DNA of 64,000 bases from Spartobacteria bacterium (GCA_003169975.1 PNAA01000056.1:3123-67122), one strand, 5' to 3'. Positions 10,296 to 33,907 are shown, counted from the stretch's first letter. A program made the numbers and translations. Notes: generated from the sequence alone by a model not told the origin.

Positions 10296-10391
10296 CCTGG
10301 TTCCCGCGTTGAAACGCACTATCGCAATGGTCAGAGGAGTAGGTATCGCCGTGTCATTATCCCGGGATAGTGACTGGAACAGCCGGAAGCG

Positions 10392-10912: not shown

Positions 10913-10968
10913 GCCGGGGTGGCCCGCGTTTTCGCGTCGGGCAAAATGCAATCCGCAGGATGTTCTAA

Positions 10969-10985
10969 TCGTGCATGATGCACGA
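10969..10985. promoter_or_regulatory. 17-bp perfect palindrome TCGTGCAT-G-ATGCACGA, candidate activator (UAS) site
   Basis: 8-bp arms around a single central base, centred about 85 bp upstream of the TGGCAC element at 11062. That is the typical distance for an enhancer-binding-protein site. Confidence 0.35.
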
Positions 10986-11061
10986 CGCACATTGGGCCAA
11001 TGAAGTGACAGAAAACTGTAAATAGCTCTTTTGCAGAATGTAACGCGTTTAGAGAAAGGCA

Positions 11062-11077
11062 TGGCACGCCATCCGCT
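11062..11077 (+). promoter_or_regulatory. candidate sigma-54 (-24/-12) promoter TGGCAC-GCCAT-CCGCT
   Basis: Perfect -24 TGGCAC and correct GG-N10-GC spacing. The -12 element is CCGCT rather than TTGCW. It lies about 165 nt upstream of the kinase start at 11243 and downstream of a sigma-54 activator gene. Confidence 0.4.
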
Positions 11078-11242
11078 AGGGAGGCGAGCATGAAGATGCT
11101 TCGCCAGTTGCCGCAACGGGCCTTCGGTGCCGACGCGAGTCGGAGGCGCGCCGGTTATGGAACCTCAAGTCTGCCGAAAGGCACGGTCGCCATCTAATCT
11201 GGTGGCTCGCCACGCAAAGGCGCATCGGGCACGCTGGGTAGC

Positions 11243-13051: not shown

Positions 13052-13740
13052 AAGCAAAAATACTAATCGTAGACGACGAACCGAACGTCCGTCTCAGCTA
13101 TCGCATGGCCCTGGAAGCCGAAGGATACGTCATCAAGGAAGCGCATTGCGGCGCGAGGGCGCTCGATGAGCTGGCCACCGGCGGGTTCGATCTCGCGATC
13201 CTCGATATGCGCATGCCGGAGATGGATGGACTCGACCTTCTCGCGGAAATGCGCAACCGCGGTTTCACCACGCCATCCGTCATCATCACGGCCTTTGGCG
13301 ATGTGCCACACGCCGTCCGCGCGATGAAGCTCGGTGCGATCGATTTTCTCAAGAAACCGATCACGCCGGAGGCGCTACGCAACATCGTGACGGATGTGGT
13401 TTCACGTCACCAAACCGGGGCCACTCCGGCAAGCCCGCCGCGCGATGACTTCCACGATCACATCGTGACCGCACAGCGGCTGCTCAACTTGCAAGATTTC
13501 CCGCGAGCGAAGAAGCACCTCATCCGCGCGCTCGAGCTAAACGACAAATCGCCCGAAGCCTTCAATCTCACGGGCGTGCTCTTCGAGATGCAGGAGGATT
13601 ACGAGCGCGCGAAAAAATACTACGGGCAGGCGATCAAGCTGAACAAGCATTACGAGCCGGCGCAGCAGAACATGCGGCGCATTTTCGAGTTGTTCCATTT
13701 CGGTGCCAGCAAAGAGCCAGTGGCCTTGGGGGATGCCTAG
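13048..13740 (+). CDS. response regulator, REC domain fused to a TPR-like C-terminal domain (copy 1)
   Basis: ILIVDDEPNVR...DLAILDMRMPEMDG receiver. The C-terminus is helical-repeat (AFNLTGVLFEMQEDYERAKKYYGQAIKLN). The ATGA overlap with the kinase stop suggests translational coupling. Confidence 0.85.
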   Translation: MKAKILIVDDEPNVRLSYRMALEAEGYVIKEAHCGARALDELATGGFDLAILDMRMPEMDGLDLLAEMRNRGFTTPSVIITAFGDVPHAVRAMKLGAIDFLKKPITPEALRNIVTDVVSRHQTGATPASPPRDDFHDHIVTAQRLLNLQDFPRAKKHLIRALELNDKSPEAFNLTGVLFEMQEDYERAKKYYGQAIKLNKHYEPAQQNMRRIFELFHFGASKEPVALGDA

Positions 13741-13741
13741 A

Positions 13742-14518
13742 ATGAACAAGCGCCTCCTGATCGTTGATGACGAGCCGAACGTCCGGCTCAGCTATCGCGC
13801 CGCTTTGGAATTAGAAAGTGATTACGCCATTGACGAGGCGAACTCCGCGTTCACCGCCCTGGAGAAGTTGGTCGAGGGCCGCTTCGACCTCGCCATCCTC
13901 GACATGAGGATGCCGGAAATGGATGGGCTCGAGTTGCTCGCCAGGATGCGCGAGCGCGGCCTGTCCACGCCGACAGTCATAATCACCGCTTATGCTGATC
14001 TGCCGCATGCCGTCAAAGCCATAAAGCTGGGTGCGATCGATTTTCTGCAAAAACCACTCACGCCCGATCAACTTCGACAGGTTGTCGCTGAAATCCTTGT
14101 TCGGCACGAGGACAACCAAGGCTTAAACGAGGTCGAAGCGAAGGATTACGCCTACCATTTGCGAGCCGCGAAACGAGCCATCAATCAGCGCGACTTTGAA
14201 GCGGCGAAGCGAAGTTTAAGAAGAGCGCTCCACCTCGACGACCGTTCTGCGGAAGGTTTCAACCTGGCGGGTCTGGTAGCGGAGTTGTCTGGCGACTTCA
14301 AAATCGCAACGCGCTACTACGAACAAGCCTTGCGGATCGACAAGGACTTCGCCCCCGCGCAGCAAAACGCGAAAAGGATCGACGAGCTCGCTCGGCGCGG
14401 AACGAGCAAGGAACCTCTCGCGCTCGGTAACGACCAACTTTCAGATTCTCCAACCACCACATTTCCTAATCAACCACCACACTATGCTCAGAATCCTCAC
14501 TCCATTACTCGCAGTTAG
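13742..14518 (+). CDS. response regulator, REC + TPR-like domain (copy 2, tandem paralog)
   Basis: MNKRLLIVDDEPNVRLSYR...DLAILDMRMPEMDG. By eye it is clearly a close paralog of copy 1 over the REC domain. I prefer the ATG at 13742 over the track start at 13703. Confidence 0.85.
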   Translation: MNKRLLIVDDEPNVRLSYRAALELESDYAIDEANSAFTALEKLVEGRFDLAILDMRMPEMDGLELLARMRERGLSTPTVIITAYADLPHAVKAIKLGAIDFLQKPLTPDQLRQVVAEILVRHEDNQGLNEVEAKDYAYHLRAAKRAINQRDFEAAKRSLRRALHLDDRSAEGFNLAGLVAELSGDFKIATRYYEQALRIDKDFAPAQQNAKRIDELARRGTSKEPLALGNDQLSDSPTTTFPNQPPHYAQNPHSITRS

Positions 14519-15719
14519 TCTCGCTCTACTCGGAAGCATTGTCGCATTCTTGCCCGCACGCGCTGGCCAGGAGGAAACAAAGGCGACGGCTTCTCCCACG
14601 CCCGAGCCACGCTTCAAGATCTCTGGTTGGATCGAAAGCGGCATCACCTTCAATCCAGATAGCCCAGCTGATAATCAAAACTTCGGGCGTTTTTTTGACG
14701 ATCGCGCGAACGAACCGTTGCTAAACCAAGCCGTGCTCAATCTCGAGCGCGCACTGGCACCGCAGCCCGGACAATTCGATTGGGGCTTCAAATTGCAATT
14801 CATGTACGGGAGCGATGCGCGCTTCATTCATTCCCTTGGTCTATTCAGCGATACGGCGGGCACCTCAATCGTCCAGCCGGACTTGCCCGAAGCCTATCTC
14901 AACCTTCACTTTCCCATTATCAGCGAGGGCGGCCTCGACTTGAAGCTTGGCAAATTCGTCACCCTGGAGGGAGTGGAAACGATCGATCCGCGCACAAATT
15001 TCTTCTACTCGCACACCTACATTTTTAATTTTGGCATTCCATTTAACCACACCGGCGCACTGGCGACCCTGCACGCGACCAAGTGGCTCGATCTTTACGC
15101 CGGCGTTACGCGGGGTGTGAATACGAGCATCGACGATAACAACGATAGTGCCTCTTTTCACGGCGGCGTCGGACTCAATCTTCTCGATGGCAAACTGACG
15201 GTTCTCGCGACCACGTCCATTGGTCCTGAAACACCGAATAACAATCACGATCAGCGTTATCTCAATGACATCGCAGTCACGGCAAAGATAACTGATAAAT
15301 TCACTTCGCTGACCGATCTCAATTATGCTCTGGACGAGGTCGCTGGCGCTCAAGCTTATGGCATCGCGCAATATTTTACCTATGCGTTCAACAGTTGGTT
15401 GACTGCTGGAATCCGCGGCGAACTCTTTCGGGATGCCGACGGCTTTTACGTCGTCTCGTTTGCCAACACCCATGACCCGATGCGCGCCTTGGAAGGTCTG
15501 TCGACCATTGATCCGCGCACCGTCGGTGGCGGGAAGACAACCTATGGGGCGATCACAGCCGGCGTAAACATCAAGCCGCCCATGCCAAAGCCCCTGGCGG
15601 GCATGGCGATCCGGCCCGAGGTCCGATACGACCGCTCTTTGAACAACACACGACCTTTCAACGACTCAAGCGACCGCGATCAATTTACTGCCGGGATCGA
15701 CTTCATTCTAACCTTCTGA
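14484..15719 (+). CDS. outer-membrane beta-barrel porin (OmpL/bbp2-like) inside the kdp gene string
   Basis: Signal peptide (LLAVSLALLGSIVAFLPARA), alternating beta-strand pattern, and a C-terminal ...GIDFILTF ending in Phe. It overlaps the upstream regulator by 35 nt. Confidence 0.7.
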   Translation: MLRILTPLLAVSLALLGSIVAFLPARAGQEETKATASPTPEPRFKISGWIESGITFNPDSPADNQNFGRFFDDRANEPLLNQAVLNLERALAPQPGQFDWGFKLQFMYGSDARFIHSLGLFSDTAGTSIVQPDLPEAYLNLHFPIISEGGLDLKLGKFVTLEGVETIDPRTNFFYSHTYIFNFGIPFNHTGALATLHATKWLDLYAGVTRGVNTSIDDNNDSASFHGGVGLNLLDGKLTVLATTSIGPETPNNNHDQRYLNDIAVTAKITDKFTSLTDLNYALDEVAGAQAYGIAQYFTYAFNSWLTAGIRGELFRDADGFYVVSFANTHDPMRALEGLSTIDPRTVGGGKTTYGAITAGVNIKPPMPKPLAGMAIRPEVRYDRSLNNTRPFNDSSDRDQFTAGIDFILTF

Positions 15720-15923: not shown

Positions 15924-17747
15924 ATGAATACTTCAGGTTGGATTCAACTCATTCTCTTCGCTGCCGCCTTGTTGGTGACGGCCAAACCACTCGGCCTTTA
16001 TCTTTGCAAGGTGCTCGATGCGAACGGCAAGACGTTTCTCGATCCGGTCATCAAGCCGATCGAAAGGCTGACTTACAAGCTAACCGGCGTCGATCCGAAG
16101 CAGGAACATGACTGGAAACGCTACGCCACCGCGATGCTGCTTTTCAGCCTGGTCTCGATGCTCTTTACTTACGCGATCCTGCGTTTGCAGGCGGTGCTCC
16201 CGCTTAATCCGCAGAAGCTTGTCGCGGTCGGCGAACATCTCGCCTTCAACACGGCAGCGAGCTTCACCACGAACACCAACTGGCAGAGCTACGGCGGCGA
16301 AAGCACCATGTCGTACCTCTCGCAGATGGTCGCGTTGACCATCCACAACTTCGTCTCGGCGGCTGTCGGTATAAGCATTGCCGCCGCCCTCGTTCGCGGC
16401 ATCGCGCGACACACGTCTCAGACCATCGGCAATTTCTGGGTCGATCTTACCCGTGTCACCTACTATCTGTTGGTGCCAATCTGCGTCGTGTTTGCGGTTG
16501 TTCTTGTGTCGCAAGGGATGATCCAAAACTTTAAGCCCTATGACTCTGCCAGCTTAAGCGATCCGTTCACTACGCAGGTGCCAAAGGTCGATGACAAGGG
16601 TGCAGCGGTCAATGGTCCCGACGGCAAGCCGGTCATGGTCGACCAAAAAATCGATGCGCAAACCATCGTGCAAGGTCCGATGGCTTCGCAGATCGCAATC
16701 AAGATGCTGGGCACCAACGGCGGCGGTTACACCAACGCCAACGCCGCGCAACCTTTCGAGAACCCGACTCCGCTCTCCAATTTCCTGCAAATGTTCGCGA
16801 TCTTCGCGATCCCGAGCGCGCTGACTTATTTCCTCGGCCGCTCGGTTAGGAACCAGGGCCACGGCTGGGCCGTATGGGCAGCGATGTTTGTCCTCTTCTT
16901 TGCCGGCGTGATGGTGGCGGCTCATTATGAAGCGGCTGGCAATCCAAACTTCACGGCTCTTGGTGTCGACCCAGCCGATGGCAACATGGAAGGCAAGGAG
17001 GTCCGCTTCGGCATCTTCAATTCCGCGCTCTTCGCCACCATTACGACCGATGCTTCCTGCGGCGCGGTTAACTCGATGCATGATTCCTTCACGCCGATGG
17101 GAGGTTTGGTGCCGTTGCTCAATATACAACTTGGCGAGGTCGTCTTCGGCGGCGTGGGCGCGGGGCTTTATGGAATGCTGATATATGTCATCATCGCGGT
17201 CTTTATCGCGGGCCTGATGGTAGGTCGCACGCCTGAATACCTCGGGAAAAAGATCGAACCGAAGGACGTCAAGATGGCTTCATTTGTCATCCTGATTCTC
17301 GCTTTCTCGATTCTCGGTTTCTCTGCCTGGGCCAGTGTCAGCAAGATGGGCGCGCCGGACGCAACCGGCGCACTGACGGACGGAACAAACAACAGCGGAC
17401 CGCATGGCTTCAGCGAAATTCTTTACGCTTACAGCTCATGCACCGGCAACAATGGCAGCGCCTTCGCGGGTCTCACGGCGAACGCGCCCTGGTATGACAC
17501 GACGCTTGGCTTCGCGACGCTCTTCGGACGTTTTGCGATGATCGTGCCGATCCTCGCGCTCGCCGGCTCACTCGCGCGCAAGAAATTGATCGCGGAAAGC
17601 GCCGGCACGTTCCCGGTCTCCGGCCCGCTCTTCACCAGTCTGCTCGTCGGCACGGTGCTCCTGATCGGGGCGCTCACCTTCGTCCCTGCGCTCGTCCTCG
17701 GCCCAGTCGTCGAACACTTCCTGATGCACGCCGGCAAGTTGTTTTAA
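15924..17747 (+). CDS. kdpA: potassium-transporting ATPase subunit KdpA
   Basis: 607 aa, KdpA signatures (NTAASFTTNTNWQSYGGE, LGTNGGGYTNANAAQPFENPTP), followed directly by kdpB and kdpC. Confidence 0.95.
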   Translation: MNTSGWIQLILFAAALLVTAKPLGLYLCKVLDANGKTFLDPVIKPIERLTYKLTGVDPKQEHDWKRYATAMLLFSLVSMLFTYAILRLQAVLPLNPQKLVAVGEHLAFNTAASFTTNTNWQSYGGESTMSYLSQMVALTIHNFVSAAVGISIAAALVRGIARHTSQTIGNFWVDLTRVTYYLLVPICVVFAVVLVSQGMIQNFKPYDSASLSDPFTTQVPKVDDKGAAVNGPDGKPVMVDQKIDAQTIVQGPMASQIAIKMLGTNGGGYTNANAAQPFENPTPLSNFLQMFAIFAIPSALTYFLGRSVRNQGHGWAVWAAMFVLFFAGVMVAAHYEAAGNPNFTALGVDPADGNMEGKEVRFGIFNSALFATITTDASCGAVNSMHDSFTPMGGLVPLLNIQLGEVVFGGVGAGLYGMLIYVIIAVFIAGLMVGRTPEYLGKKIEPKDVKMASFVILILAFSILGFSAWASVSKMGAPDATGALTDGTNNSGPHGFSEILYAYSSCTGNNGSAFAGLTANAPWYDTTLGFATLFGRFAMIVPILALAGSLARKKLIAESAGTFPVSGPLFTSLLVGTVLLIGALTFVPALVLGPVVEHFLMHAGKLF

Positions 17748-17786
17748 CTCTCAATCCTCAACTAACAATCTCTCAACTTTTCTAAT

Positions 17787-19811
17787 ATGGCTGCTAAAAC
17801 TCATTCCATTTTCGATCCGGCGATCATCATCCCGGCGATCGGTGCATCGTTCCAGAAGCTCAACCCTGCCCACATGCTCGGGAATCCGGTCATGTTCGTC
17901 ACGGAAGTCGGCGCTCTGATTACGACCGCGCTTCTCTTCAGCGGCGGACAGGGCGCGTCCTTTGGTTTCCTGCTCCAGATTACCCTCTGGCTCTGGTTCA
18001 CGGTGATCTTCGCGAACTTCGCGGAAGCGATGGCGGAAGGTCGCGGCAAAGCCCAAGCCGAGACATTGCGCAAATCGAGAACCGAAACGAAGGCCAATCG
18101 TTTCCGGGGCGATGGCGCGCTCGAGGAAGTTCCCTCAAACAAGCTCAGGAAAGGCGATGTCGTCATCGTGAAAGCCGGCGAATTCATCCCCGGCGACGGC
18201 GAGATTATCGAAGGCGCCGCGACCGTGGACGAGTCAGCCATCACCGGCGAATCAGCCCCCGTTGTGCGCGAAGCTGGCGGCGACCGCAGCGCTGTCACCG
18301 GCGGCACCCGCGTGCTTTCAGACGTGATCAAAGTCCGCATTACCGCGAATCCCGGCGAGACCTTCCTCGATCGCATGATCGGGCTTGTCGAAGGCGCGAA
18401 ACGTCAGAAGACCCCCAATGAAATCGCGCTCACCATCCTGCTCTCCGCGCTCACGATCATCTTCCTCATCGTGCTCATTTCGATGAAAGCGTTCGGCATT
18501 TACAACGGGGTCGATTTCTCGATCACGGTGCTCGTCGCATTGCTCGTCTGCCTCATTCCCACGACGATCGGCGGATTGCTCAGCGCCATCGGAATCGCGG
18601 GGATCGATCGTCTCGTGCAGAAAAATGTGCTCGCCATGAGTGGGCGCGCGGTTGAAGCCGCCGGCGACGTGGATGTGTTGTTGCTGGACAAGACCGGCAC
18701 GATCACGCTTGGCAATCGGCAGGCTGCGGAATTCCTGCCCGCCCCTGGTGTGACGAAAGAGGCCATGGCGGAAGCTGCGCAACTTGCTTCCCTGGCCGAC
18801 GAAACTCCGGAAGGCCGGAGTATTGTGGTTTTGGCCAAGGAAAAATACGGATTGCGCGGACGCGAGCTCAACGAGCTGCCGCACGCCACCTTCGTCCCGT
18901 TCACTGCCCAAACCCGAATGAGCGGCGTGGACATTAACGGGACCAAGTATCGCAAAGGCGCGGCCGACCAGGTGAAAGCTTTCGTCGGCGGCAACCTGCC
19001 CGGAGCTGTTCAGTCCGATGTCGATAGGATCGCTGGACTCGGTGGAACACCGCTGGTCGTGGCCTCAAACGAGAAAGTGCTCGGCACGATCTACCTCAAG
19101 GACATCGTGAAGGGCGGACTGGCGGATCGTTTCGAGCGCTTCCGCGCCATGGGCATCCGCACCATCATGATTACCGGCGACAATCCGCGCACCGCTGCGG
19201 CCATCGCGAAAGAAGCAGGCGTCGACGACTTCCTCGCCGAAGCAACACCGGAGCAGAAGCTCGCGCTGATTCGCAAAGAGCAGGAGGGCGGTCACCTCGT
19301 CGCCATGACCGGTGACGGCACGAACGACGCGCCCGCGCTGGCCCAGGCCGATGTTGGCGTAGCGATGAACACCGGCACGCAAGCCGCCAAGGAAGCGGGC
19401 AACATGGTCGATCTCGACTCGAACCCGACCAAGCTCATCGAGGTCGTCGAGATCGGGAAACAACTCCTCATCACTCGCGGTGCGCTGACCACGTTCAGTA
19501 TCGCCAACGATGTCGCGAAGTATTTCGCCATCATCCCAGCGATGTTGCTCGTCAGCTTCCCGTCAATCGCGCCGCTCAATGTGATGAAGCTCGCGTCGCC
19601 CCAGAGCGCCATTCTGAGCGCGGTGATCTTCAATGCGATCATCATCATCCTGCTCATCCCGCTCGCCCTGCGCGGTGTGAAATTCCGCCCGCTTGGCGCG
19701 GCCAAAATTCTGCAACGCAATCTTCTCATCTACGGTGTCGGCGGCGTCATCATTCCATTCATTGGCATCAAAGCGATCGACATGATGGTCGCCGCACTTC
19801 ACCTCGCCTAG
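17787..19811 (+). CDS. kdpB: potassium-transporting ATPase subunit KdpB (P-type ATPase)
   Basis: DKTGTIT phosphorylation motif, [22 protein letters not shown]. 674 aa. Confidence 0.95.
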
Positions 19812-19832
19812 TTCCGCAAACCGATTTATCCC

Positions 19833-20426
19833 ATGAATACTATTATTAAAGAAACCACTACCGCGGTGCTCGCGACGCTTCTCTTCGCCCTCGTTCTGTG
19901 CGGCATCTACCCAGTCATCATCTGGGGAGCCGGCCAGTTGCTCTTCCCGCACCAGGCCAATGGCAGCCTGATCGAAGGCAGCGATCGTAAGACTGTCGGT
20001 TCCGAACTGCTCGGCCAGAACTTTACCAGCGCGAAATACTTTCATCCGCGTCCTTCTTCGGCTGGCACTGGTTATGATGCGGCTAACTCCAGCGGCTCCA
20101 ACCTTGGGCCGACTTCGCAGAAACTGATCGACGCGGTGAAACAACGCGTCGCCGATTACCGCGCTGAGAACGGCCTGGCCGCTGATGCACTTGTCCCCGG
20201 CGATGCTGTCACCGCGAGTGGCAGCGGTCTCGATCCGCACATCAGCCCGAAGAACGCGCTCCTGCAAGCCTCCCGAGTTGCGAGAGAGCGCGGCCTCGGC
20301 GTGGACGTTGTGAAAACCGAAATCGACAAAGCCACGACCGCGGCACAGTTCGGCATTCTTGGGGAAGCCGGCGTGAACGTACTTAAACTTAATCTCGCGC
20401 TCGACGCGATGTCTCCCAAAAAATAA
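19833..20426 (+). CDS. kdpC: potassium-transporting ATPase subunit KdpC
   Basis: 197 aa, an N-terminal TM helix, then LFPHQANGSLI and SGSGLDPHISP motifs typical of KdpC. Confidence 0.95.
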   Translation: MNTIIKETTTAVLATLLFALVLCGIYPVIIWGAGQLLFPHQANGSLIEGSDRKTVGSELLGQNFTSAKYFHPRPSSAGTGYDAANSSGSNLGPTSQKLIDAVKQRVADYRAENGLAADALVPGDAVTASGSGLDPHISPKNALLQASRVARERGLGVDVVKTEIDKATTAAQFGILGEAGVNVLKLNLALDAMSPKK

Positions 20427-20435
20427 TCTCTTCAC

Positions 20436-21566
20436 ATGCCCGAGGCCGACTCCGCCCTACGTCCGAGCGCGGATGATTTCCTTGCGATCATCCGCCAGCA
20501 GCAGGTCGGAAAGTTGAAGATCTATCTCGGTCCCTGCCCCGGCGTCGGCAAAACCTATTCGATGTTGAACGAGGGGCGCCGCTTGAAACAGCGCGGCGTC
20601 GACGTCGTCATCGGCTACGTCGAGCCGCACGATCGCCCCGAAACCACCGCGCAAATCGGCGACCTCGAGATCGTGCCGCCGCGGCTCACGACTTATCACG
20701 GGATCACGCTCAACGAGATGGATGTGGACGCCGTTATCAAGCGCAAGCCGACCGTCGCGCTAGTCGATGAACTCGCGCACACGAACGCGCCCGAAAGCAA
20801 AAACCGGAAGCGCTACGAAGACGTGGAAGATTTGCTTCGCGCGGGCATCAACGTCATCAGCACGGTCAACATTCAGCACCTCGAATCGCTCTATAATTTC
20901 GTCGAAGAGTCAACCGGGGTGCGCGTGAAAGAACGAGTGCCCGACGAAGTCCTAACCAAAGCCGACCAGATCGTGAACATCGACTTGCCCGCTGAAGATT
21001 TGCAGGAGCGACTGCAGTCCGGAAAAATTTATCCAAAAGAACGGATCGTAGCCGCGCTCGCGAATTTCTTCACCCAGAAAAACCTCACGCGCCTGCGCGA
21101 GATGACGCTGACCGAAACGGCGAACTTTCTCGACCGCAAACAACGCGACACCGCAGAGAGCGAGCAGAATGTCAGCGCGCTCGGTCAGGTGATGGTCGCG
21201 ATCAGCAGTCAAGGTCCAGATCCCGGACGACTGCTCCGCAAGACCGCGCGCCTGGCTTCACAACTCAACGCGCAATGGTATGCGGTCTATGTGCGCACGC
21301 CTGAGGAATCGGTCGTAAAGATCGACGCCGCCGCTCAGCGCCGTGTCACCGACACGCTCGAAACCGCCCAGAAAATGGGCGGTCTGGTCTTTTCGATGAA
21401 GGGCGAAAATGTCGCGCAGGCTCTGATCTCGTTCGCTCGCGAATACGGTATCACGCACATCGTCGTCGGCCGCCCCGGCGGCAACAAACTAAAGCGGCTT
21501 TTCAGAAAGACGCTGCACGAAAAACTATTGCAGGCGCTGCCAGATGTCGATCTCGTCGTGGTCTGA
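20436..21566 (+). CDS. kdpD: KdpD N-terminal sensor domain + USP domain protein (no TM, HisKA or ATPase domains)
   Basis: GKLKIYLGPCPGVGKTYSML Walker-like motif, VDELAHTNAP and NVISTVNIQHLES (KdpD N-terminal domain), then a USP-like half. The ORF ends at 376 aa. Confidence 0.85.
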   Translation: MPEADSALRPSADDFLAIIRQQQVGKLKIYLGPCPGVGKTYSMLNEGRRLKQRGVDVVIGYVEPHDRPETTAQIGDLEIVPPRLTTYHGITLNEMDVDAVIKRKPTVALVDELAHTNAPESKNRKRYEDVEDLLRAGINVISTVNIQHLESLYNFVEESTGVRVKERVPDEVLTKADQIVNIDLPAEDLQERLQSGKIYPKERIVAALANFFTQKNLTRLREMTLTETANFLDRKQRDTAESEQNVSALGQVMVAISSQGPDPGRLLRKTARLASQLNAQWYAVYVRTPEESVVKIDAAAQRRVTDTLETAQKMGGLVFSMKGENVAQALISFAREYGITHIVVGRPGGNKLKRLFRKTLHEKLLQALPDVDLVVV

Positions 21567-22039
21567 GCGGCGTCGGTGTGTCCTTGCCTTCTTCTGTCCA
21601 CGCGGTTTTCGCGGAAAAGAAGACGACCGCCAGCTCTATCCAGGACCCAAAAGACCCCGCTCATCCGATAAGCGTAACGCTCGATTAATGTGAACTCAAT
21701 TTGTTACGATCGCTAGAGCTCCACGACGCCTGCTCCGCGCACCCGGCCCACTTGGTTAGGCCACGCCCTCCACCGGCCAAAATGCTGCCTAAGGCGTAGA
21801 TAGGACGATCCCGAGACGACCAAGCCGTCACTGATCAATACCGAATAGGGCATCGGTTACCGTCTCACCCTGCCAGAAGAGCCATTGCGCAACCACGCGG
21901 CGTTGGGTAGTGTCATAATTTCAATTTAGATGCCCAAGTCTGGTTGTTCCACTCGCGGACGTCTTATCTGCGAGCTTGTCCACCAACTTGTTTCCATCCA
22001 ACTCAAGCAAGCCTAGACGCTTCGGGCTTTTCTTGCCGT

Positions 22040-22221
22040 CGTCGAGCGTCCAAAATTCGCCAACGCCTGAGCGCCCGGTCCAAGGCCGCTGCCGCCTTGC
22101 ACTACGGCTACTACAATTTGTCAAAACGACCGCTGCGGTGCGCTGCACGCCCGCAAGGGCCGCTGGTGTGACGCAAACGTTCTGGACAGTCCGGGATCTC
22201 GTAGAGATGATTGAAGCGTGA
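22040..22221 (+). pseudogene. frameshifted C-terminal remnant of an IS1/IS1595-type transposase
   Basis: Two adjacent frames read ...ASKIRQRLSARSKAAAALHYGYYNLSK and FVKTTAAVRCTPARAAGVTQTFWTVRDLVEMIEA*. From memory this matches the ...AFSKK.EN....ALH..YYNF.R.H.TL..TPAMAAGVTDH.W...EL tail of these transposases. Confidence 0.45.
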
Positions 22222-22505
22222 GCGAACGCACCAACAAACTCCAAGGAGCCGTCGAAACGATGCACCGCTGCAAGGCAACTTACGTCGGCCCAGAGCTTGT
22301 GATCGAATTGTTTTGCGGTCAAATCGCGTGGGACGGAGTCGTCCAGATTTTCGATCTCGCCGGGCATCCGAAAGCGAAACGCTGCCATGCATGGTCGTAT
22401 CTTGAAAACCACAAACCGCAATGCACGACCGTCTTAGAGATTCCACCGGTGGATTCAGCGGAGACAACCGTCAAAGAGGCGGTTGCAGCCAAAGCGAGGT
22501 CGTAA
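22218..22505 (+). CDS. conserved hypothetical protein (95 aa)
   Basis: Resembles a small protein family I recall from many bacteria (...HRCKA.YV........G...W.G.V..FDL.GHPKAKRCYAWS...VLE.PPV.SA..AV). No function is known. Confidence 0.55.
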   Translation: MSERTNKLQGAVETMHRCKATYVGPELVIELFCGQIAWDGVVQIFDLAGHPKAKRCHAWSYLENHKPQCTTVLEIPPVDSAETTVKEAVAAKARS

Positions 22506-22509
22506 GAGC

Positions 22510-22860
22510 ATGAACATTTTGCGGCATATACCCGTTTGGGCCTTTCTCTTGATTGCTACCACGTTGGAAGTCAGCGGGGATGCGGTTGTCAGAATAGCGA
22601 TTTACAATCAAGCCGGGATTGCGCGAATCGGCCTCACGCTCGCCGGTGCAACACTCCTCTTAGGCTACGGATTCGCTCTCAACCTGGCCCCCGTTGAGTT
22701 TGGACGAGTAGTTGGTCTTTACATCGCCACGCTATTTGTTGTCTGGCAGATCATCAATTTTATCGCCTTCCGAGCATTACCGAATGTTCCAATCCTGATT
22801 GGAGGCAGTCTTATCGTCGCGGGCGGCCTGATCATCACGTTCTGGAAAGCAGCGAACTGA
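22510..22860 (+). CDS. small 4-TM membrane protein (YnfA/SMR-like)
   Basis: MNILRHIPVWAFLLIATTLEVSGDAVV..., about 116 aa with four hydrophobic helices. I prefer the ATG at 22510 over the track start at 22483. Local GC is lower than the surroundings. Confidence 0.55.
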   Translation: MNILRHIPVWAFLLIATTLEVSGDAVVRIAIYNQAGIARIGLTLAGATLLLGYGFALNLAPVEFGRVVGLYIATLFVVWQIINFIAFRALPNVPILIGGSLIVAGGLIITFWKAAN

Positions 22861-22861
22861 C

Positions 22862-23252
22862 ATGATGAATAAGTTCTTCGCGGCATTCTTTGCCTTCGGC
22901 GCAACGATGTGCACTCTCACCATAATCTTACTTCTTTTTCCGGGAACCGCGCTAGACTTGCTTTGGCGTCTCAATCCCGACGCTCATTCAGCCTTTTCAA
23001 TCTCTCGGAAAAGTGTCGGTATTGCTCATGTTTGTCGTCGGAGCAGGGTGCGCACTAGCTGCGACAGGCATGTGGCGAGGCTCTCGCTGGGGCATGCGCC
23101 TCGCTTTGGCAATCTTATCGGTCAATATCCTGGGTGACCTTTTTAATGCTTTGATGCGTCACGATTTGCGCACGTTGATCGGGCTACCGATTGGCGGCGC
23201 GATGATCGCTTATCTAATCTGCAGCAGAAAAAAGCCTGCTATTTCAAATTAG
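22862..23252 (+). pseudogene. membrane protein gene split by a +1 frameshift in a T4 run (22994-22997)
   Basis: Track ORFs 22862-23137 and 23013-23252 are two halves of one gene. Deleting one T gives ...NPDAHSAF-QSLGKVSVLLMFVVGAGCALAATGMW... as one continuous hydrophobic protein. Confidence 0.65.
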
Positions 23253-23319
23253 GACACTACCCGCCATTGTGCTCGCTTGACTTCCCGTTTCGCCAATCAG
23301 AGCATGACTCTGGTTCTTT

Positions 23320-23460
23320 ATTCAGCTTAATGGTCCCGCGAGTGCCGGACCAACGGGGGATCCAACTTCCTTCCGCGCAAGCGGGCGGATCGGGGCGAAC
23401 GATGTGCGACATCGAGGGCATTTAATGGCTCCAGCCCGACAGCTAACCTCGCCAGCTTCA
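23320..23460 (+). promoter_or_regulatory. probable cyclic-di-AMP riboswitch (ydaO/kimA class) in the leader of the permease gene
   Basis: From memory of the ydaO-yuaA consensus: ACGGGGGATCCA (23353-23364), GGATCGGGGCGAAC (about 23387-23400), GAGGGCA (23414-23420), and the near-invariant 3' block CCCGACAGCTAACCTCG (23435-23451). It ends 6 nt before the ATG at 23466. Confidence 0.7.
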
Positions 23461-23465
23461 TTAAA

Positions 23466-25337
23466 ATGCAGGAAAGGTTTCGTCGCGCGGGACCGCTTGG
23501 TTTCTTTCGAAGTTTTTTGATACCGACCAACGTTAAGCGACCGCGCAATGTGGATGTGCCACGCGCAGCCGCCATCCTCTACGGCGACTGGGGCACGAGC
23601 AAAGCGTACGTTATCGGCCTCGCTTTTGCCGTCGGCGGCTATGCCTCATTCTGGCTTATCGCTGCGATGTGCGTTCTCACCGCGCTCGTCGGGATCAACT
23701 ATATCATCATCTGCCGGCTCTATCCGGATGGCGGCGGCGTTTATGCCAGCGTCCGGCATCGCTCCGAGGTCATTTCCATCGTCGGCGCGTTTCTCCTCAT
23801 CGCCGATTACCTCGTCACGGCAGCGATCAGCGCACTGTCCGCGTTTCAATACCTGGGCGTCCCGCACCCGGAAAAGTTCGCGGCGGCGGCCATCCTCGTC
23901 ATCGGCCTGCTTAACTTGCTCGGACCGAAACACACCGGCGGTCTCGCCTTCCTCATCTCGGTTCCAACCGCGCTCGTCGTCATTACCCTTGGCCTGTTCA
24001 GCCTCCCCCATCTCGGCGTCGCCCTTGGACATCTGCAACCATTGCACGGGAGCTTTTGGCAAAACTGGAGCGGCTTCGTTGGAATCGTCCTCGCACTCTC
24101 GGGCGTCGAGGCAATCGCCAACGCCACCGGCGTCATGCGACTCAATCCCGGCAGCACTGAGGCCAATCCCTCGGTGACCAGGACATCCACGCCCGCTCTC
24201 CTCTGGGTGATGGTCGAGGTCTGTATCTTCACCGCGTTGCTCGGGCTCGCGATGAACGCACTCGGTGGTTTGCAGGTCGTGCACGGCGACGTGAACGCGC
24301 CGGGCGCGCAAGGCGTCCGCGACTACATGCTGCGCTACATGGGAGAAACATTTGTCGGCGGCGCACTCGGACCCGCCATCGGGCACGCCTTCGGTTTTGC
24401 GGTCAGCATCACCTTCGGCTTTCTTCTGCTTTCCGCCGTCAACACCGCGATCGTCGATCTCATCACGATCCAATTCCTGATGGCGCGCGACCGTGAGATG
24501 CCGTCGATCTTTCAACGGCTCAACCGCTGGGGCGTGCCCAGCTTCGGCCTGTTTCTCGCCACCGTCGTCCCGATCGCGCTCGTCCTTCTCGTCAAAGACA
24601 TGGTCGGTCTCGCCGATTTATATGCGGTGGGCGTGGTGGGCGCAATCGCGACCAATCTCGGCGCCACCGCCACGGACCGCCATTTACGGATCAAGACTTG
24701 GGAACGGACCTTGATGTTCGGAACGTTCGTCGTCATGGCCGCGATTGAAATGTCGCTCCTCATCGATAAGCCGAACGCCCGCTATTTTGCGGTCACGGTC
24801 CTGGCGGCAGGACTCATTTTGCGCGGGCTCGTGCAGGAGCGCCGGATAAAAAAAGAAGCCGCCGTCGCTCCGGAGGCTTTGCCGGTACCGCGGGCCGCGC
24901 CGGAAGCTTCCGCGGCGGCGACGGAGATGCTCGGAGGCGAAGCGATGCTTTGCGCCATCCGCGGCACTGGACGCACGCTCGATTTCGCCCTGCGCGAAGC
25001 GCGCGAGACCGGCCGCCGGCTTTACCTCCTCTTCGTCCGCGAACAGCGTTTCATGACGGAGCAGGACGCGAAACGCAAATGGCAGGCAGATCCCGAAGCG
25101 CGGGAAATATTCGAGAATGCCCGGGCGCGCTCGCCGGATCAACCGCCGCTATTCTGCTACGCGGTGAGCGACTCGGCCTCCCAGACGATCGTCGATATCG
25201 CAGCGACGATCGGCGCGTCACGCCTCATCCTCGGCGCCCCGCGCCGTCACGCGATGGTCAACATCCTCCGTGGCAACCTCGTCCGTGAAGTATCCGATAT
25301 GCTGCCGGACGAAATCGACCTGCTGGTTTACGCCTAA
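23466..25337 (+). CDS. APC-superfamily permease with C-terminal USP-like domain; candidate K+ transporter (KimA/Kup-like motifs)
   Basis: 623 aa, about 12 TM helices. Motifs YGDWGTSKAYV (compare Kup GDIGTSPLY), YPDGGGVY and LSGVEAIANATGV (compare KimA, from memory). The cytoplasmic tail is USP-like (LYLLFVRE..., GASRLILGAPRR). Confidence 0.8.
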   Translation: MQERFRRAGPLGFFRSFLIPTNVKRPRNVDVPRAAAILYGDWGTSKAYVIGLAFAVGGYASFWLIAAMCVLTALVGINYIIICRLYPDGGGVYASVRHRSEVISIVGAFLLIADYLVTAAISALSAFQYLGVPHPEKFAAAAILVIGLLNLLGPKHTGGLAFLISVPTALVVITLGLFSLPHLGVALGHLQPLHGSFWQNWSGFVGIVLALSGVEAIANATGVMRLNPGSTEANPSVTRTSTPALLWVMVEVCIFTALLGLAMNALGGLQVVHGDVNAPGAQGVRDYMLRYMGETFVGGALGPAIGHAFGFAVSITFGFLLLSAVNTAIVDLITIQFLMARDREMPSIFQRLNRWGVPSFGLFLATVVPIALVLLVKDMVGLADLYAVGVVGAIATNLGATATDRHLRIKTWERTLMFGTFVVMAAIEMSLLIDKPNARYFAVTVLAAGLILRGLVQERRIKKEAAVAPEALPVPRAAPEASAAATEMLGGEAMLCAIRGTGRTLDFALREARETGRRLYLLFVREQRFMTEQDAKRKWQADPEAREIFENARARSPDQPPLFCYAVSDSASQTIVDIAATIGASRLILGAPRRHAMVNILRGNLVREVSDMLPDEIDLLVYA

Positions 25338-30076: not shown

Positions 30077-31900
30077 ATGGAACCTTTAATGGACATTTTA
30101 GCTCCCGTGCCGTCCGACCTGACGACAGCTGACCTGGCCCGGCTGCGGCGAGCCGCACTCTGGTTGGCGATCCCATTTGTCTTCGGCGCGGGAGCGAGTC
30201 TGGCTGTCGCGGCGGCAGTCGCAACGCCGCTTTTTGCGGGAATGGAAGCGTACCTCTGTTGGTGCACTCTCGTTTCCATCATCCAAAACATTTTCCTCCA
30301 ACTGCAAAGCTCGGATCTGACGAACGCGGAGGACAACAAGGCGCTGCACAAACGGCAACACGAACCGGGCCGGGTGGGCCGGAACGATCCGCCGGTTAAC
30401 TCGCCGCCGGGTCTGACCAGCTTCGCGATCGGCTGGCAGTGGGTGATCTTTTTCGCGGGGACAATTGCGATCGCGGTGGCCGTGCGCACGTCCCTTGCCA
30501 CCACGCCGCTCTCTCGCGATGCGCTGGTCTCTCTTCGCGTCGCTACCGTAATCTTTCTTTCGTTAGGCTGCGTTTACTATTTCTTCGGAAACTTCGCCCG
30601 GGCTGTCGCGGCCCGCGTCGCTTCCGAATTGCTCGCGCCGCTGCTGGCCCTCACCCGCATCGCTTCCTTTGCTTCCTTCATCAGCGCGGCACTGGTCTTT
30701 CTCTTCATCTCGACTACGCGCGATTATAGCGCCTGGTTCGGTTGGGCCGTGCTCGCTTTCAGCGGCTTCCTTATCCTCGAGGCGCTCCTTCGTTTCGGAC
30801 TGCGCTTTTACCAACCGAAGAGTATCCGCACGGTCCCGGGCCCGGCCGGAACGAGCCCGATTCTGGAAGCTCTCTTTGGCCGGGGTCAGGGCCTCGGCTC
30901 GGCCGTTCAAGGTTTCGAAGATTTGTTAGGCGTAAAGCTACGCGAGGTTTGGATCGTTCGTTACCTGCGCCAAGCGATCGAGCCCATCATCTTGGGAACG
31001 GTCGTTCTCGGCTGGTTGTCCACCTGTTTCACGGCCGTGCCCGCGGGCAGCCGCGCGGTGCGGATCGTTTTTGGTCGCTACCAGCCGGTCGCGCTCCAAC
31101 CGGGATTGCATCTCACCTGGCCGTGGCCAGTCGAGCGGCTCGAAATTGTCGAGACCGAATCCGTCAGGCAAATTTCCCTCGGCTTCGACAAGGATCTCTC
31201 CGGCCCGATTCTCTGGAGCGAGCCGCACTTTGAAGGCGAAAAGAATCTTCTTGTCGGCGACGGCGAATCGCTTCTCACGATCGATGTGCCGATTCTCTAT
31301 CGGATCTCCGACCCGGTGCGCTTCCTCGAGACTACGACCGATGCGGAGAAGGCGCTGCTTGTTCTCGCGGAACGCAAACTGATTCAGATCGCCGGCTCGC
31401 GCAGCAGTTTCCAGATCATGACTGAAGAGCGCGCGGAAATTGCGCACAAGTTGCACGACGCTTTGCAAAGCGAGGTGCACGGCCTCGGCCTCGAGGTGAT
31501 CTTTGTTGGGCTGAAGGACGTGCACCCACCGGTGGATGTCGCACCCGCTTTCCAGGAAGTGATCAGCGCCCAGGAAGAAAAGGAAAAGACGATCGACCTG
31601 GCACGCGCGTCGCGGGCGCAAGTCCTGCCGGAGGCGAAGGCGCAAGCCCACCGAATGCAGGTCGCGGAGGACGCCAGTTACAAGGAACGTGTTGCCGCCG
31701 CCCAGGGAGCGGCTGCCCGTTTCACGGCGATTATCGATGCGGATCGGGAGAACAGCGCCGTCTTTCGCCTGCGGCTGAAGCTCGATGTCCTGGAGCAGGT
31801 TCTCGGCAAGGCGACGAAAACGATTCTGGCCGTGCCGGAACGCTCGAAACAGGAGCTCTACCTCGATCTGCGAAACACCCAGGAGATGCCGCCGCCGTGA
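30077..31900 (+). CDS. polytopic membrane protein with C-terminal SPFH (HflK-like) domain
   Basis: About 300 aa of TM helices, then RAVRIVFGRYQPVALQPGLHLTWPWPVERLEIV... and an HflK-like coiled tail. Confidence 0.75.
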   Translation: MEPLMDILAPVPSDLTTADLARLRRAALWLAIPFVFGAGASLAVAAAVATPLFAGMEAYLCWCTLVSIIQNIFLQLQSSDLTNAEDNKALHKRQHEPGRVGRNDPPVNSPPGLTSFAIGWQWVIFFAGTIAIAVAVRTSLATTPLSRDALVSLRVATVIFLSLGCVYYFFGNFARAVAARVASELLAPLLALTRIASFASFISAALVFLFISTTRDYSAWFGWAVLAFSGFLILEALLRFGLRFYQPKSIRTVPGPAGTSPILEALFGRGQGLGSAVQGFEDLLGVKLREVWIVRYLRQAIEPIILGTVVLGWLSTCFTAVPAGSRAVRIVFGRYQPVALQPGLHLTWPWPVERLEIVETESVRQISLGFDKDLSGPILWSEPHFEGEKNLLVGDGESLLTIDVPILYRISDPVRFLETTTDAEKALLVLAERKLIQIAGSRSSFQIMTEERAEIAHKLHDALQSEVHGLGLEVIFVGLKDVHPPVDVAPAFQEVISAQEEKEKTIDLARASRAQVLPEAKAQAHRMQVAEDASYKERVAAAQGAAARFTAIIDADRENSAVFRLRLKLDVLEQVLGKATKTILAVPERSKQELYLDLRNTQEMPPP

Positions 31901-31916
31901 TCAGCCTAACGATTCT

Positions 31917-32825
31917 ATGAAACCTCAAATGCTCATCCGTAGCGCCGTTTCCATACTCATCCTCGTCGTTCTTTTTTCGTTCATGCTCGGATTCCAAGTC
32001 CGCCAGAACGAGCAAGTGGTTCTAACCCGCTTCGGCAATCCGGTGCGCGTCATTCATCACCCTGGTCTGTATCTGAAATGGCCGTGGCCGATCGAGAAAG
32101 TGAATCGATTCGATGCGCGTTTGAATTTCTACGAGATCCGATTGTCCGAAGCCCTAACGAAGGATAAACGTAATGTTATCGTCCCGGCGTTTGTCGCCTG
32201 GCGAATCGCCAGTCCGCAAAAATTCCTCGAGGCCATCGGCAGCGTCGAGAACGCGCAAGGCAAACTCGACAGCCTCGTGAGCAGCGCGAAAAATACCGTG
32301 CTCGGCAGCTTCGATTTCAACCAGTTGGTTTCGGTCAAACCGGAAGACGTCAAGTTGGCAGAGATCGAGACGAAAATCACCCAGCTAACTTCCGGGCAGG
32401 CGCTGCATTCGTTCGGTATTCAAATCGAACAGGTCGGAATCGAGCGCGTCACTCTGCCGGAAGTCAACACGAGTTTCGTCTTCGAGCGGATGCGGGCGGA
32501 GCGTGCGCAATTCGCGGCGCGCTACCGGGCGGAAGGCCAGCAGGAAGCCGACGCAATCAATGCTCAGACCGATGCCGAGAAAACCGTCCTCCTCGCCGAA
32601 GCGCGAAAATCCGCAGAAGAAACGCGTGGCAAGGCGGAGGCGGAAGTGGCTCATATTTATTCCGCGGCGCATCAGGAGCAGCCGGATCTCTATCGATTCT
32701 TGCGTGAACTGGAAGCACTCAAGAAAGTCGTTAACCAGAACACGACGCTCGTACTCGACGCCAATTCGCCGCCGTTCGATCTCTTGAAAACCGGTCCGTT
32801 GCCCGCGACCACTCCGGCGCCATGA
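31917..32825 (+). CDS. SPFH-domain protein, HflC-like
   Basis: MKPQMLIRSAVSILILVVLF... VVLTRFGNPVRVIHHPGLYLKWPWPIEKV. I prefer the ATG at 31917 over the track start at 31785. Confidence 0.85.
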   Translation: MKPQMLIRSAVSILILVVLFSFMLGFQVRQNEQVVLTRFGNPVRVIHHPGLYLKWPWPIEKVNRFDARLNFYEIRLSEALTKDKRNVIVPAFVAWRIASPQKFLEAIGSVENAQGKLDSLVSSAKNTVLGSFDFNQLVSVKPEDVKLAEIETKITQLTSGQALHSFGIQIEQVGIERVTLPEVNTSFVFERMRAERAQFAARYRAEGQQEADAINAQTDAEKTVLLAEARKSAEETRGKAEAEVAHIYSAAHQEQPDLYRFLRELEALKKVVNQNTTLVLDANSPPFDLLKTGPLPATTPAP

Positions 32826-33907
32826 AGCAGAAACGCGAAGACGCTCTTTTTCCGGCGCACGCGATTTTGGCCGCGCTCCGTTCCAGCATCCGCATCCTGC
32901 GTTGGGGAATGCTCATCCTCGTCCTCATTTACCTCTGTTCGGGCATTACCGTGATTGGGCCAAACGAACGCGGACTTGTGCTTCGTTTTGGCCGTGCCCT
33001 CCCGAAGACCGCGCCGCCTGGGCTGCTCCTGGCCTGGCCGGCGCCGATTGACGAAATCGTTAGGCTACCAGCAAAAAGCGTGCAGGATGTGGCGCTCGAG
33101 ACCTGGGCGGAAGGGACTGATGGCTCATGGCACGATTCGTTGCATCCCCTCCGCGATCCCTACACGATCAGTGGCGATGTGAACATCATCCGCGCGCGCT
33201 TTTCCGTGCGTTTCCAGATCGCAGATCCGATCGCTTACGAATTTGGGGCGTCCGAGCGCGACGCTCTGCGCGACGCCATTCTCTACCAGTCCGTCAGTCG
33301 GACGCTCGCCTCGATGAATGTGGATGATATTCTCACTACGCGTCGCGATCACATCGGCCAGGAAGCAATGCGGTTGGCGCAGGCGGAAATGGATCGACTC
33401 GGCCTCGGCATTCAATTGTTGGCGTTTGAAACGCGAGAGATCAATCCGCCGGCGCAAGTGTTGCCGGCGTTTCAGGATGTAGTGAGCGCGAAGGTCCAGG
33501 CCAAGACGATGGTGGAACCGGCGCGAAGTCGCGCCGCCACGATCATTCCAGAAGCGAAGGCCGAGGCCTACCGGATTGAGCAACAGGCGCAGGCCTATGC
33601 TGAGGGGCTTACCGCCAAAGCGCGCGGCGAAGTTTCCGCCTTTTTGGCGTTGCTAAAAGAATATCGCGCCAATCCCGGAACGGTGAGGACCCGGCTGTAT
33701 GCCGAAATGATCGAACAGGTGCTGCCGAAACTTCGCGTCGCGACGGTCCTTCCAGGCCAGGGAGCGCCACTGCGCCTGTTGATTGAGCCACAAAAAGGCG
33801 ACGTGGTGGCACCGGCTTCCGAAGATCAGTTTGGCAACGTCCAGGCCTTGCCCGATTCCACTCCTTATCCCAGCAGTCCGTCGACGGAAGACCACGAAAA
33901 TCCTTGA
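32822..33907 (+). CDS. SPFH-domain protein, HflK-like
   Basis: One TM helix, then GPNERGLVLRFGR...PGLLLAWPAPIDEIV and an Ala/Glu-rich coiled tail. 4-nt overlap with the upstream gene. Confidence 0.85.
   Translation: MKQKREDALFPAHAILAALRSSIRILRWGMLILVLIYLCSGITVIGPNERGLVLRFGRALPKTAPPGLLLAWPAPIDEIVRLPAKSVQDVALETWAEGTDGSWHDSLHPLRDPYTISGDVNIIRARFSVRFQIADPIAYEFGASERDALRDAILYQSVSRTLASMNVDDILTTRRDHIGQEAMRLAQAEMDRLGLGIQLLAFETREINPPAQVLPAFQDVVSAKVQAKTMVEPARSRAATIIPEAKAEAYRIEQQAQAYAEGLTAKARGEVSAFLALLKEYRANPGTVRTRLYAEMIEQVLPKLRVATVLPGQGAPLRLLIEPQKGDVVAPASEDQFGNVQALPDSTPYPSSPSTEDHENP

Follow-up and report, generated by a model that had tools for sequence, protein, structure and literature searches.

A predicted c-di-AMP riboswitch in front of the gene for a probable KimA-like potassium importer in a soil Spartobacteria bacterium

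What does a membrane protein transport, and what controls its synthesis, when its family is labelled 'amino acid transporter/universal stress protein' in the source annotations and the RNA in front of its gene resembles the ydaO/kimA leader? This question is raised by positions 23314-25337 of a 64,000-nucleotide (nt) stretch of DNA from Spartobacteria bacterium (GCA_003169975.1 PNAA01000056.1:3123-67122), which we analyzed as a whole and refer to as the window. An original prediction for this locus had proposed that a riboswitch for cyclic di-AMP (c-di-AMP) controls a permease fused to a domain of the universal stress protein (USP) type, and that this permease is a K+ importer lying next to the kdp genes. 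Our analysis makes it likely that 23314-25337 is one regulatory unit, in which a c-di-AMP riboswitch precedes a gene encoding a proton-coupled K+ importer of the KimA type, and the soil bacterium that carries it very probably uses the familiar circuit linking c-di-AMP and potassium. The features of the locus and the key residues of the transporter are collected in Table 1.

When the full 64-kb window was compared by cmscan with all 4,227 Rfam families at the gathering threshold, the sole match, on the plus strand at 23314-23473, was to RF00379, the family of c-di-AMP riboswitches or ydaO/yuaA leaders. With 54.0 bits this match exceeds the gathering cut-off of 38 (E 9.9e-10), and it spans the full model (positions 1-134), which is far above chance level. 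The leader blocks on which the original prediction had relied (CCCGACAGCTAACCTCG at 23435-23451, ACGGGGGATCCA at 23353-23364, and GGGGCGAAC/GAGGGCA in between) are all found where it had placed them, and the RF00379 covariance search that it had proposed as a check, with a sub-threshold score as the unfavorable outcome, gave a score above the threshold. In the cmscan alignment, the ligand-pocket blocks ACGGGGGA, GGGG.GAA and CCCG.CAGCUAACC.CG fit the RF00379 consensus, and they are invariant among the 37 orthologous leaders that we aligned. Applied blind to this leader alignment, RNAalifold recovered the RF00379 helices, with compensatory changes in 18 of 43 pairs. For the aptamer alone, 97.6% of the alignment cells are paired, as opposed to 92.7±0.4% in shuffles; changes on both sides of a pair occur at 12 pairs and in 61 cells, the latter value being matched by 0/500 shuffles (0-1/500 overall), and sliding the register lowers the pairing to 26-45%. 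The unconstrained fold of the whole leader was uninformative (z-score -1.2). A clade covariance model built from the aptamer alignment, which we call R1, reaches 165 bits in the window, at 23312-23465. Both purifying and compensatory selection act on the aptamer. Judged by its match to the family and its strong covariation, the RNA in front of the transporter gene is a genuine c-di-AMP riboswitch, predicted to bind its ligand.

The open reading frame (ORF) behind this RNA, at 23466-25337, would encode 623 amino acids (aa) if read from its ATG, which is the start that the original prediction had adopted, together with a leader of about 140 nt ending 6 nt before it. Close homologs are 603-609 aa long and share the N-terminus M/L/V-I-A/P-T-N-V-K-R-P-R-N, and the few longer gene calls carry N-terminal extensions that are mutually unrelated. 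At the alignment column that corresponds to position 23517 of the window, most of the 37 leaders have TTG, the others being ATG (L029; L numbers denote individual related loci), GTG (L040 and L063) or CTG (L004, L017 and L022), each of which can serve to initiate translation. Because of these homolog N-termini and this start-codon column, we take TTG 23517 as the start, giving a 606-aa protein and a leader of about 205 nt, and we ruled out the ATG at 23466. That ATG, found 6-8 nt beyond the aptamer, is not where translation begins; the hint of translational control that had been drawn from this spacing was therefore built on the wrong start, and a conserved hairpin platform separates the aptamer from TTG 23517.

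This expression platform occupies the approximately 60 nt between the end of the aptamer and the TTG start. The apical core of its hairpin, CGTCGCGCG, is invariant across the 37 leaders, and RNAalifold predicts the hairpin at alignment columns 238-263, with compensatory changes in its stem. Most relatives have an extra insertion of about 38 nt in the platform, which the window lacks. In the leaders with this longer variant, the platform holds a copy of CCTCGTC, the 3′ strand of the aptamer, and an exchange between the two looked attractive; we rejected the idea, as the copy is not conserved in the short variant of the window, which has GGTTTCG. The leader of a Latescibacteria member of the family (L083) has a canonical terminator at its end, CCGCAGA...TCTGCGG followed by T7, plus a strong Shine-Dalgarno sequence.

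Single-sequence searches of the window protein gave no Pfam membrane-domain family, nothing meaningful in NCBIfam and no phmmer match in the PDB, so profiles were needed to place it; the expectation that the protein would usually be annotated as an amino acid permease does not hold for this sequence in Pfam and NCBIfam. A family profile built from 26 diverse members (36-95% identity) placed B. subtilis KimA (6S3K/8B70/8B71) first in the PDB, with an E of 5.8e-17 over residues 25-441; the runners-up, LysP (6e-6) and ApcT (1e-5), were weaker by eleven orders of magnitude. Comparison with a KimA-family alignment by hhalign gave a probability of 99.0% (E 2.6e-18) over 474 columns. AlphaFold2 produced a model (predicted local distance difference test score, pLDDT, 81.8) in which 12 transmembrane (TM) helices are joined by a disordered linker to an alpha/beta tail of five strands. 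In the structural comparison with KimA that had been suggested for this protein, the top three Foldseek matches in the PDB were the KimA entries 8B70, 8B71 and 6S3K (E 8e-19 to 4e-16), with full-length alignments of about 630 columns, followed by cation-chloride cotransporters and then by LAT, AdiC and ApcT. By profile and by model, then, the window protein is a distant homolog of KimA, a 12-TM transporter of the LeuT fold for which KimA is the closest solved structure. The two also agree in size (606 and 607 aa) and in having a cytoplasmic alpha/beta domain at the C-terminus.

An exhaustive search of 1.84 billion representatives at 50% identity returned only 1,300 relatives at E<=1e-3; the family is therefore compact and stays separate from the large families of amino-acid permeases. 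Its size is at least 7,500 clusters when counted at 90% identity and about 1,300 when counted at 50%, with members in Verrucomicrobiota, Planctomycetota, Latescibacteria and others.

We compared the window protein with KimA at the residues whose roles have been described. In KimA, the K+ site and gates are formed by D36, Y43, T121, T230 and Y377, E233 serves in proton coupling, trans-inhibition acts through D117, and Y118, N237 and T317 line the tunnel (PMC6994465, PMC10284832); D36 is a K+ ligand, Y43 the external gate and E233 the residue of proton coupling (PMC6994465). The profile-profile alignment pairs AILYGD24WGTSKAY31 of the window protein with AMLSSD36ALSSVAY43 of KimA, and the eleven equivalences, with their conservation among the 26 family members, are listed in Table 1; all eleven residues are conserved in 28/28 sequences of a second alignment. 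Based on these alignments, the transporter retains the equivalents of KimA's K+ ligands, gates, proton-coupling Glu and trans-inhibition Asp. The three motifs to which the original prediction had drawn attention, 'YGDWGTSKAYV', 'YPDGGGVY' and 'SGVEAIAN', are all present in the ORF.

The TM1 motif also links the family to the KUP/HAK/KT transporters, with which it shares the LeuT fold. Within LYGD24, L21 and G23 are invariant in the family and Y22 and D24 nearly so, and the sequence fits the [VI][FY]GD pattern of E. coli Kup and its relatives; the KUP form of the TM1 motif is VFGD or IYGD, whereas KimA is without it (PMC6994465). Residues D24, D97 and E198 of the window protein likewise correspond to D23, E116 and E229 of Kup (PMC6994465). 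Unlike KUP proteins, none of the 26 family members matches the Pfam K_trans family (PF02705), even at E<=1, and a USP stands in place of the C-terminal domain of KUP.

Could the protein nevertheless be what its labels say? An APC-superfamily permease for amino acids, polyamines or osmolytes, with a riboswitch that serves osmolyte homeostasis and not K+ uptake, would agree with the database entries ('amino acid transporter/USP'), with the matches of 11/26 family members to AA_permease_2 or AA_permease (PF13520/PF00324), and with the good superposition of LAT, AdiC and ApcT on the TM domain (TMt 0.70-0.78). The window protein itself matches neither of these Pfam families at E<=0.01. It is also the case that c-di-AMP riboswitches precede osmolyte and cell-wall genes. 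However, KimA too matches PF13520 and for a long time bore the label of an amino acid permease, so that nothing about an amino-acid substrate follows from such a match and the Pfam results do not discriminate; KimA is ahead by eleven orders of magnitude in the profile search and comes first by fold; there is little or no variation at the K+ ligands, at the proton-coupling Glu and in the YGD motif of the KUP type; and the genomic context, described below, is one of kdp genes, a KdpDE-like system and a porin rather than amino-acid metabolism. We therefore regard an amino-acid, polyamine or osmolyte permease as unlikely, and a K+ importer of the KimA/KUP type is, by profile and model, the best explanation for the 'amino acid permease'-USP fusion, in line with what had originally been proposed.

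A transporter of the KimA fold might still carry another cation or work in another direction, taking up NH4+, Na+ or Cs+/Rb+ or exporting K+. Identity to KimA is only 17-23%, and a phmmer search with the single sequence misses KimA; the residue equivalent to KimA Y118 (Y98) varies in a paralog within the window; and the next-best structural matches are the cation-chloride cotransporters. On the other hand, all of the KimA residues on which K+ binding and proton coupling have been shown to depend are kept, an OFF-switch that responds to c-di-AMP suits an importer and not an exporter, and the links to kdp and KdpDE-like genes indicate K+ limitation. A different substrate or direction thus seems to us quite unlikely. 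We predict that the window protein imports K+ by proton coupling, as KimA does, and represents a subfamily of its own.

Table 1. Features of the window and transporter residues equivalent to those of KimA. Conservation refers to the 26 members of the family profile.
Feature	Position	Strand	Basis or remark
c-di-AMP riboswitch aptamer (RF00379)	23314..23473	+	cmscan, 54 bits; structural core ~23325-23458
In-frame ATG, start of the original prediction	23466..23468	+	inside the leader; probably unused
Expression-platform hairpin GGTTTCGTCGCGCGGGACC	23476..23494	+	terminator-like scan match; apical core CGTCGCGCG
T-rich spacer GCTTGGTTTCTTTCGAAGTTTT between platform hairpin and start codon	23495..23516	+	sequence reading
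KimA-like K+/H+ symporter gene (predicted), 606 aa, TTG start, stop included	23517..25337	+	profile, hhalign, fold
TM1 motif LYGDWGTSKAY	23577..23609	+	D24, Y31; fits KUP [VI][FY]GD motif
TM6 motif SGVEAIAN	24099..24122	+	S195, E198, N202; S, G and E in 26/26, N in 25/26
C-terminal cytoplasmic USP-fold domain, residues ~474-606	24936..25334	+	Pfam USP, Foldseek; disordered linker 451-473
D24 (KimA D36)			conserved 25/26
Y31 (KimA Y43)			conserved 26/26
D97 (KimA D117)			conserved 22/26
Y98 (KimA Y118)			conserved 24/26
T101 (KimA T121)			conserved 25/26
S105 (KimA S125)			conserved 26/26
S195 (KimA T230)			conserved 26/26; conservative T to S
E198 (KimA E233)			conserved 26/26
N202 (KimA N237)			conserved 25/26
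T310 (KimA T317)			conserved 26/26
Y369 (KimA Y377)			conserved 26/26
BBP2 outer-membrane porin	14484-15719	+	Pfam/NCBIfam
kdpA	15924-17747	+	Pfam/NCBIfam
kdpB	17787-19811	+	Pfam/NCBIfam
kdpC	19833-20426	+	Pfam/NCBIfam
KdpD-N/USP non-kinase sensor	20436-21566	+	NCBIfam NF038185, 350 bits, below the cut-off of 550
Second KimA-like permease-USP paralog, 631 aa	47954..49849	+	43% identity, BLASTP E 2e-144

The cytoplasmic tail of the window protein had been described as USP-like, and this description stands: Pfam USP (PF00582) matches residues 503-606 with 26 bits against a cut-off of 24, as it does 23/26 of the family members, and the family profile also matches MJ0577 and TeaD. An AlphaFold2 model of the tail alone (pLDDT 87) found USPs as its top Foldseek matches. 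Among them are TeaD (E 3e-6) and MSMEG_3811, which binds cAMP, and rank 6 is held by the c-di-AMP-bound USP of S. aureus KdpD (7JI4; TMq 0.69). Both the profile and the model indicate that the tail is a true USP fold, like those of TeaD (of TeaABC) and of the c-di-AMP-binding KdpD. In MJ0577-type USPs, the ATP-binding motif is G-x2-G-x9-G-[ST]. Here it is degenerate, reading G573-AP-R-x9-G586-N in the window protein and G-x2-[variable]-x9-G-[N/D/S] in the family. The analogy that had been drawn with the c-di-AMP-binding S. aureus KdpD USP fares less well, in that the published motif, (A/G/C)xSxSxxN(Y/F) (PMC8214093), is lacking in the transporter tail, in the tail of the paralog, in the KdpD-N protein of the window and in all of the family sequences compared (0/54). 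These two motif results, together with the weak alignment to the C-terminal domain of KimA and the loss of its R337 contact (see below), speak against assigning a particular ligand to the tail. As for KimA, its C-terminal domain was not among the top 50 Foldseek matches of the tail. The c-di-AMP contacts of KimA are R337, P479, V506, Q581 and S582; because most of these contacts are to the backbone, sequence cannot decide on binding of the KimA type. Nucleotide control through the USP tail is plausible.

To see how widely riboswitch and transporter are paired, we assembled 80 ortholog loci from GTDB representative genomes, all of them metagenome-assembled genomes of the Chthoniobacterales/Udaeobacter/'Spartobacteria' type, with proteins 75-87% identical to the window protein. 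Six of the 80 have too little upstream sequence, which leaves 74 evaluable for riboswitch presence. R1 finds one aptamer each, always on the strand of the transporter, in 52/74 loci: 41 have the arrangement riboswitch-transporter, 8 have riboswitch-BBP2 porin-transporter and 3 have other arrangements. The remaining 22 are without a riboswitch, and in 14 loci without a match to the clade model, no divergent aptamer was found at the Rfam gathering score either. The pairing recurs outside this set. RF00379 lies directly 5′ of the transporter gene in L088 (54.9 bits), whose protein is 70% identical to that of the window, and directly 5′ of more distant members, with proteins 40-49% identical, in the Latescibacteria locus L083 (64.9 bits) and in L087 (82 bits).

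Two further observations concern genes beside these transporters. L088 has a second c-di-AMP riboswitch (2812-2964, 64.4 bits), 3′ of the transporter gene and directly 5′ of a gene of the Band_7/SPFH type; three SPFH genes also stand in tandem in the window, at 30077-33907, without a riboswitch. In L084, L085 and L086, three independent and riboswitch-free contigs, a small DUF2905 gene (66-70 aa) lies directly 5′ of the transporter gene.

Several observations weigh against a unit in which c-di-AMP controls a K+ importer, in addition to the low identity to KimA noted above. The riboswitch is absent from 22/74 evaluable ortholog loci, from the distant family contexts in Planctomycetes L081/L082, in L084/L085 and in L086, and, by Rfam and by R1, from the window's own paralog at 47954-49849. 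Among the approximately 50 ORFs of the window that we scanned, none has a diadenylate cyclase or c-di-AMP phosphodiesterase domain. In the platform, the U-tract is not conserved in the 37 leaders, which makes a canonical intrinsic terminator doubtful in the window, and the scan gave 5 terminator-like matches versus 2.9±1.6 in shuffles, not clearly above expectation; with the matches at shuffle level and the U-tract unconserved in the clade, we regard an intrinsic terminator in the window platform as unsupported. When folding was computed in two states, with the aptamer forced or forbidden, the unpaired fraction of the start site was unchanged (0.43 vs 0.42), and we dropped sequestration of the ribosome-binding site or start, for which this gave no signal. 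In the protein, the KimA c-di-AMP contact R337 corresponds to S330, which is variable across the family, and a tail-only hhalign comparison with the KimA C-terminal domain is weak (probability 6%).

These points could be taken to mean that the aptamer is real but decaying or re-purposed in the clade and no longer places the downstream gene under c-di-AMP control: no terminator or Shine-Dalgarno sequestration is recognisable, 30% of the orthologs lack the aptamer and the window lacks a cyclase. Set against this are the strong purifying and compensatory selection on both the aptamer and the platform hairpin across 52 genomes, the fit of the ligand-contact blocks to the Rfam consensus, and the recurrence of the aptamer-gene pairing in other lineages, and we consider decay very improbable.

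The genomic context of the c-di-AMP riboswitch with its transporter gene was another element of the original prediction. The kdp genes that it had reported nearby are indeed present: kdpA, kdpB, kdpC and the gene for the KdpD-N/USP protein occupy 15924-21566, 1.9 kb upstream. A joint c-di-AMP-centered K+ module is only loosely supported, since the proximity stands but neither kdp nor the porin in the window has a riboswitch in front of it (Rfam, R1) and no more than 8/80 loci have kdpABC at a distance of up to 8 kb from the ortholog; adjacency to kdp recurs and is not a fixed module. The association with the porin says more. The BBP2 porin gene stands in front of kdpA in the window and inside the kdp operon, in the order kdpA-B-C-BBP2-kdpD-N, in L010 and L048. 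In the eight loci with the riboswitch-porin-transporter arrangement, the last aligned residue of the porin falls 3-7 nt before the transporter start. These placements suggest that BBP2 is a porin family associated with K+ uptake. In L083, the riboswitch and transporter gene follow genes for a DUF4118-GAF histidine kinase (resembling the C-terminal half of KdpD) and a KdpE-like regulator of the OmpR type, as well as a CPA2/RCK gene. The kdp, porin and KdpDE-like contexts all point to K+ homeostasis. Loci of interest for the BBP2 (OmpL-like) porin are the window (14484-15719), L010, L048, L031, L032, L037, L038, L041, L057, L066 and L069.

The paralog in the window matches AA_permease_2 (1.6e-16) and USP (1.3e-8) in Pfam and keeps the K+-site motifs LYGDWGTSKAY, SGAESIAN and LYAIGVVGA, with Y98 replaced by L. 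A divergent paralog is present in 43/80 loci, and in 27/80 related loci a paralog of this type divergently adjoins the ortholog.

A mechanism can be sketched by analogy with kimA of B. subtilis and kdp of B. thuringiensis (PMC6488665). Plentiful K+ would raise c-di-AMP and thereby lock the aptamer, the conserved downstream hairpin would then form and expression would be switched off, through an arrest of transcription or a block to initiation at TTG, a weak start; when K+ is scarce, c-di-AMP would fall and the importer would be made. More speculatively, the USP tail may add a post-translational layer of nucleotide control, as the C-terminal domain of KimA does with c-di-AMP, and the related genomes in which the same riboswitch drives a BBP2 porin translationally coupled to the transporter suggest a route for K+ uptake across two membranes. 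A still wider reading, to which we give somewhat less than even credence, would make the family a third, unnamed branch of the KUP superfamily, one that bridges canonical KUP (through the YGD motif) and KimA (through architecture and K+ site), carries a USP tail as nucleotide sensor and, in diderm soil bacteria, has the BBP2 porin as a dedicated partner in a two-membrane K+ route gated by c-di-AMP. With porins of this family also lying within kdp operons, the BBP2 proteins would then be K+-uptake porins.

How much of this is new? The combination of a c-di-AMP riboswitch and a KimA-type importer is the founding example of the riboswitch class, the archetypal ydaO/kimA layout, and the window resembles B. 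subtilis kimA in having an RF00379 aptamer in the 5′ leader of the gene. It differs from it in its diderm host, in the porin that is co-transcribed with the transporter in related genomes, in the TTG start and in having no canonical terminator. KimA and the window family also differ in the LYGD motif, in the tail, which is a Pfam-recognisable USP here, and in the contact R337, as described above. The logic of a c-di-AMP riboswitch acting on K+ uptake is shared with the kdpFABC riboswitch of B. thuringiensis (PMC6488665), where a truncated, N-terminal-only KdpD likewise accompanies the kdp genes, as it does kdpABC here, but the riboswitch of the window is on the KimA-like gene and not on kdp. 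In Bacillus, this truncated KdpD-N type co-occurs with riboswitch-controlled kdp, and c-di-AMP riboswitches on K+ transporter genes in Verrucomicrobia have already been predicted (PMC6488665). No new kind of mechanism is revealed. Our literature searches turned up no paper describing this KimA-like, USP-tailed subfamily, and as far as they show, its character intermediate between KUP and KimA, its USP tail and its coupling to a porin are unrecorded.

If the prediction is right, thousands of 'amino acid transporter/universal stress protein' entries from very abundant soil Verrucomicrobiota (Chthoniobacterales/Udaeobacter) could be re-annotated as likely K+/H+ importers, and the c-di-AMP/K+ circuit, so far studied mostly in Gram-positive bacteria, would extend to diderm phyla. 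The family would also offer a divergent relative of KimA for structure-function work, with the functional residues kept at about 20% identity, and the BBP2 porins would be candidate K+-associated channels of the outer membrane.

Other genes in the window merit a brief description. Directly 5′ of the porin-kdpABC string lies a further group (8604-14518), beginning with a stand-alone kdpA paralog at 8604-10295 (563 aa, Pfam KdpA 687 bits) beside which neither kdpB nor kdpC is found. Next, at 10370-14518, come a truncated ORF that resembles sigma54 activators but comprises just the AAA lid and HTH_8, the gene for a HAMP-PAS histidine kinase and those for two proteins of the response-regulator-TPR type. 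The approximately 900 nt between kdpD-N and the next gene (21567-22482) contain no convincing ORF and no Rfam match; a 166-aa ORF on the minus strand of this interval has no Pfam match. The next gene, at 22483-22860, encodes a 4-TM protein whose TM1 carries the motif EVSGD. Behind it, two short overlapping ORFs (22862-23137 and 23013-23252) correspond to one in-frame gene for a small membrane protein in at least 11 related loci, and because the relatives keep a single in-frame gene, the copy in the window has a frameshift near 23000-23030, from pseudogene formation or assembly error. Homologs of the 4-TM and small membrane proteins are repeatedly syntenic with the transporter, and in L065 both lie between the riboswitch-porin pair and the transporter. 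Finally, an unrelated 501-aa protein encoded at 284-1789 (+) contains an ice-binding-like domain (PF11999, 193 bits).

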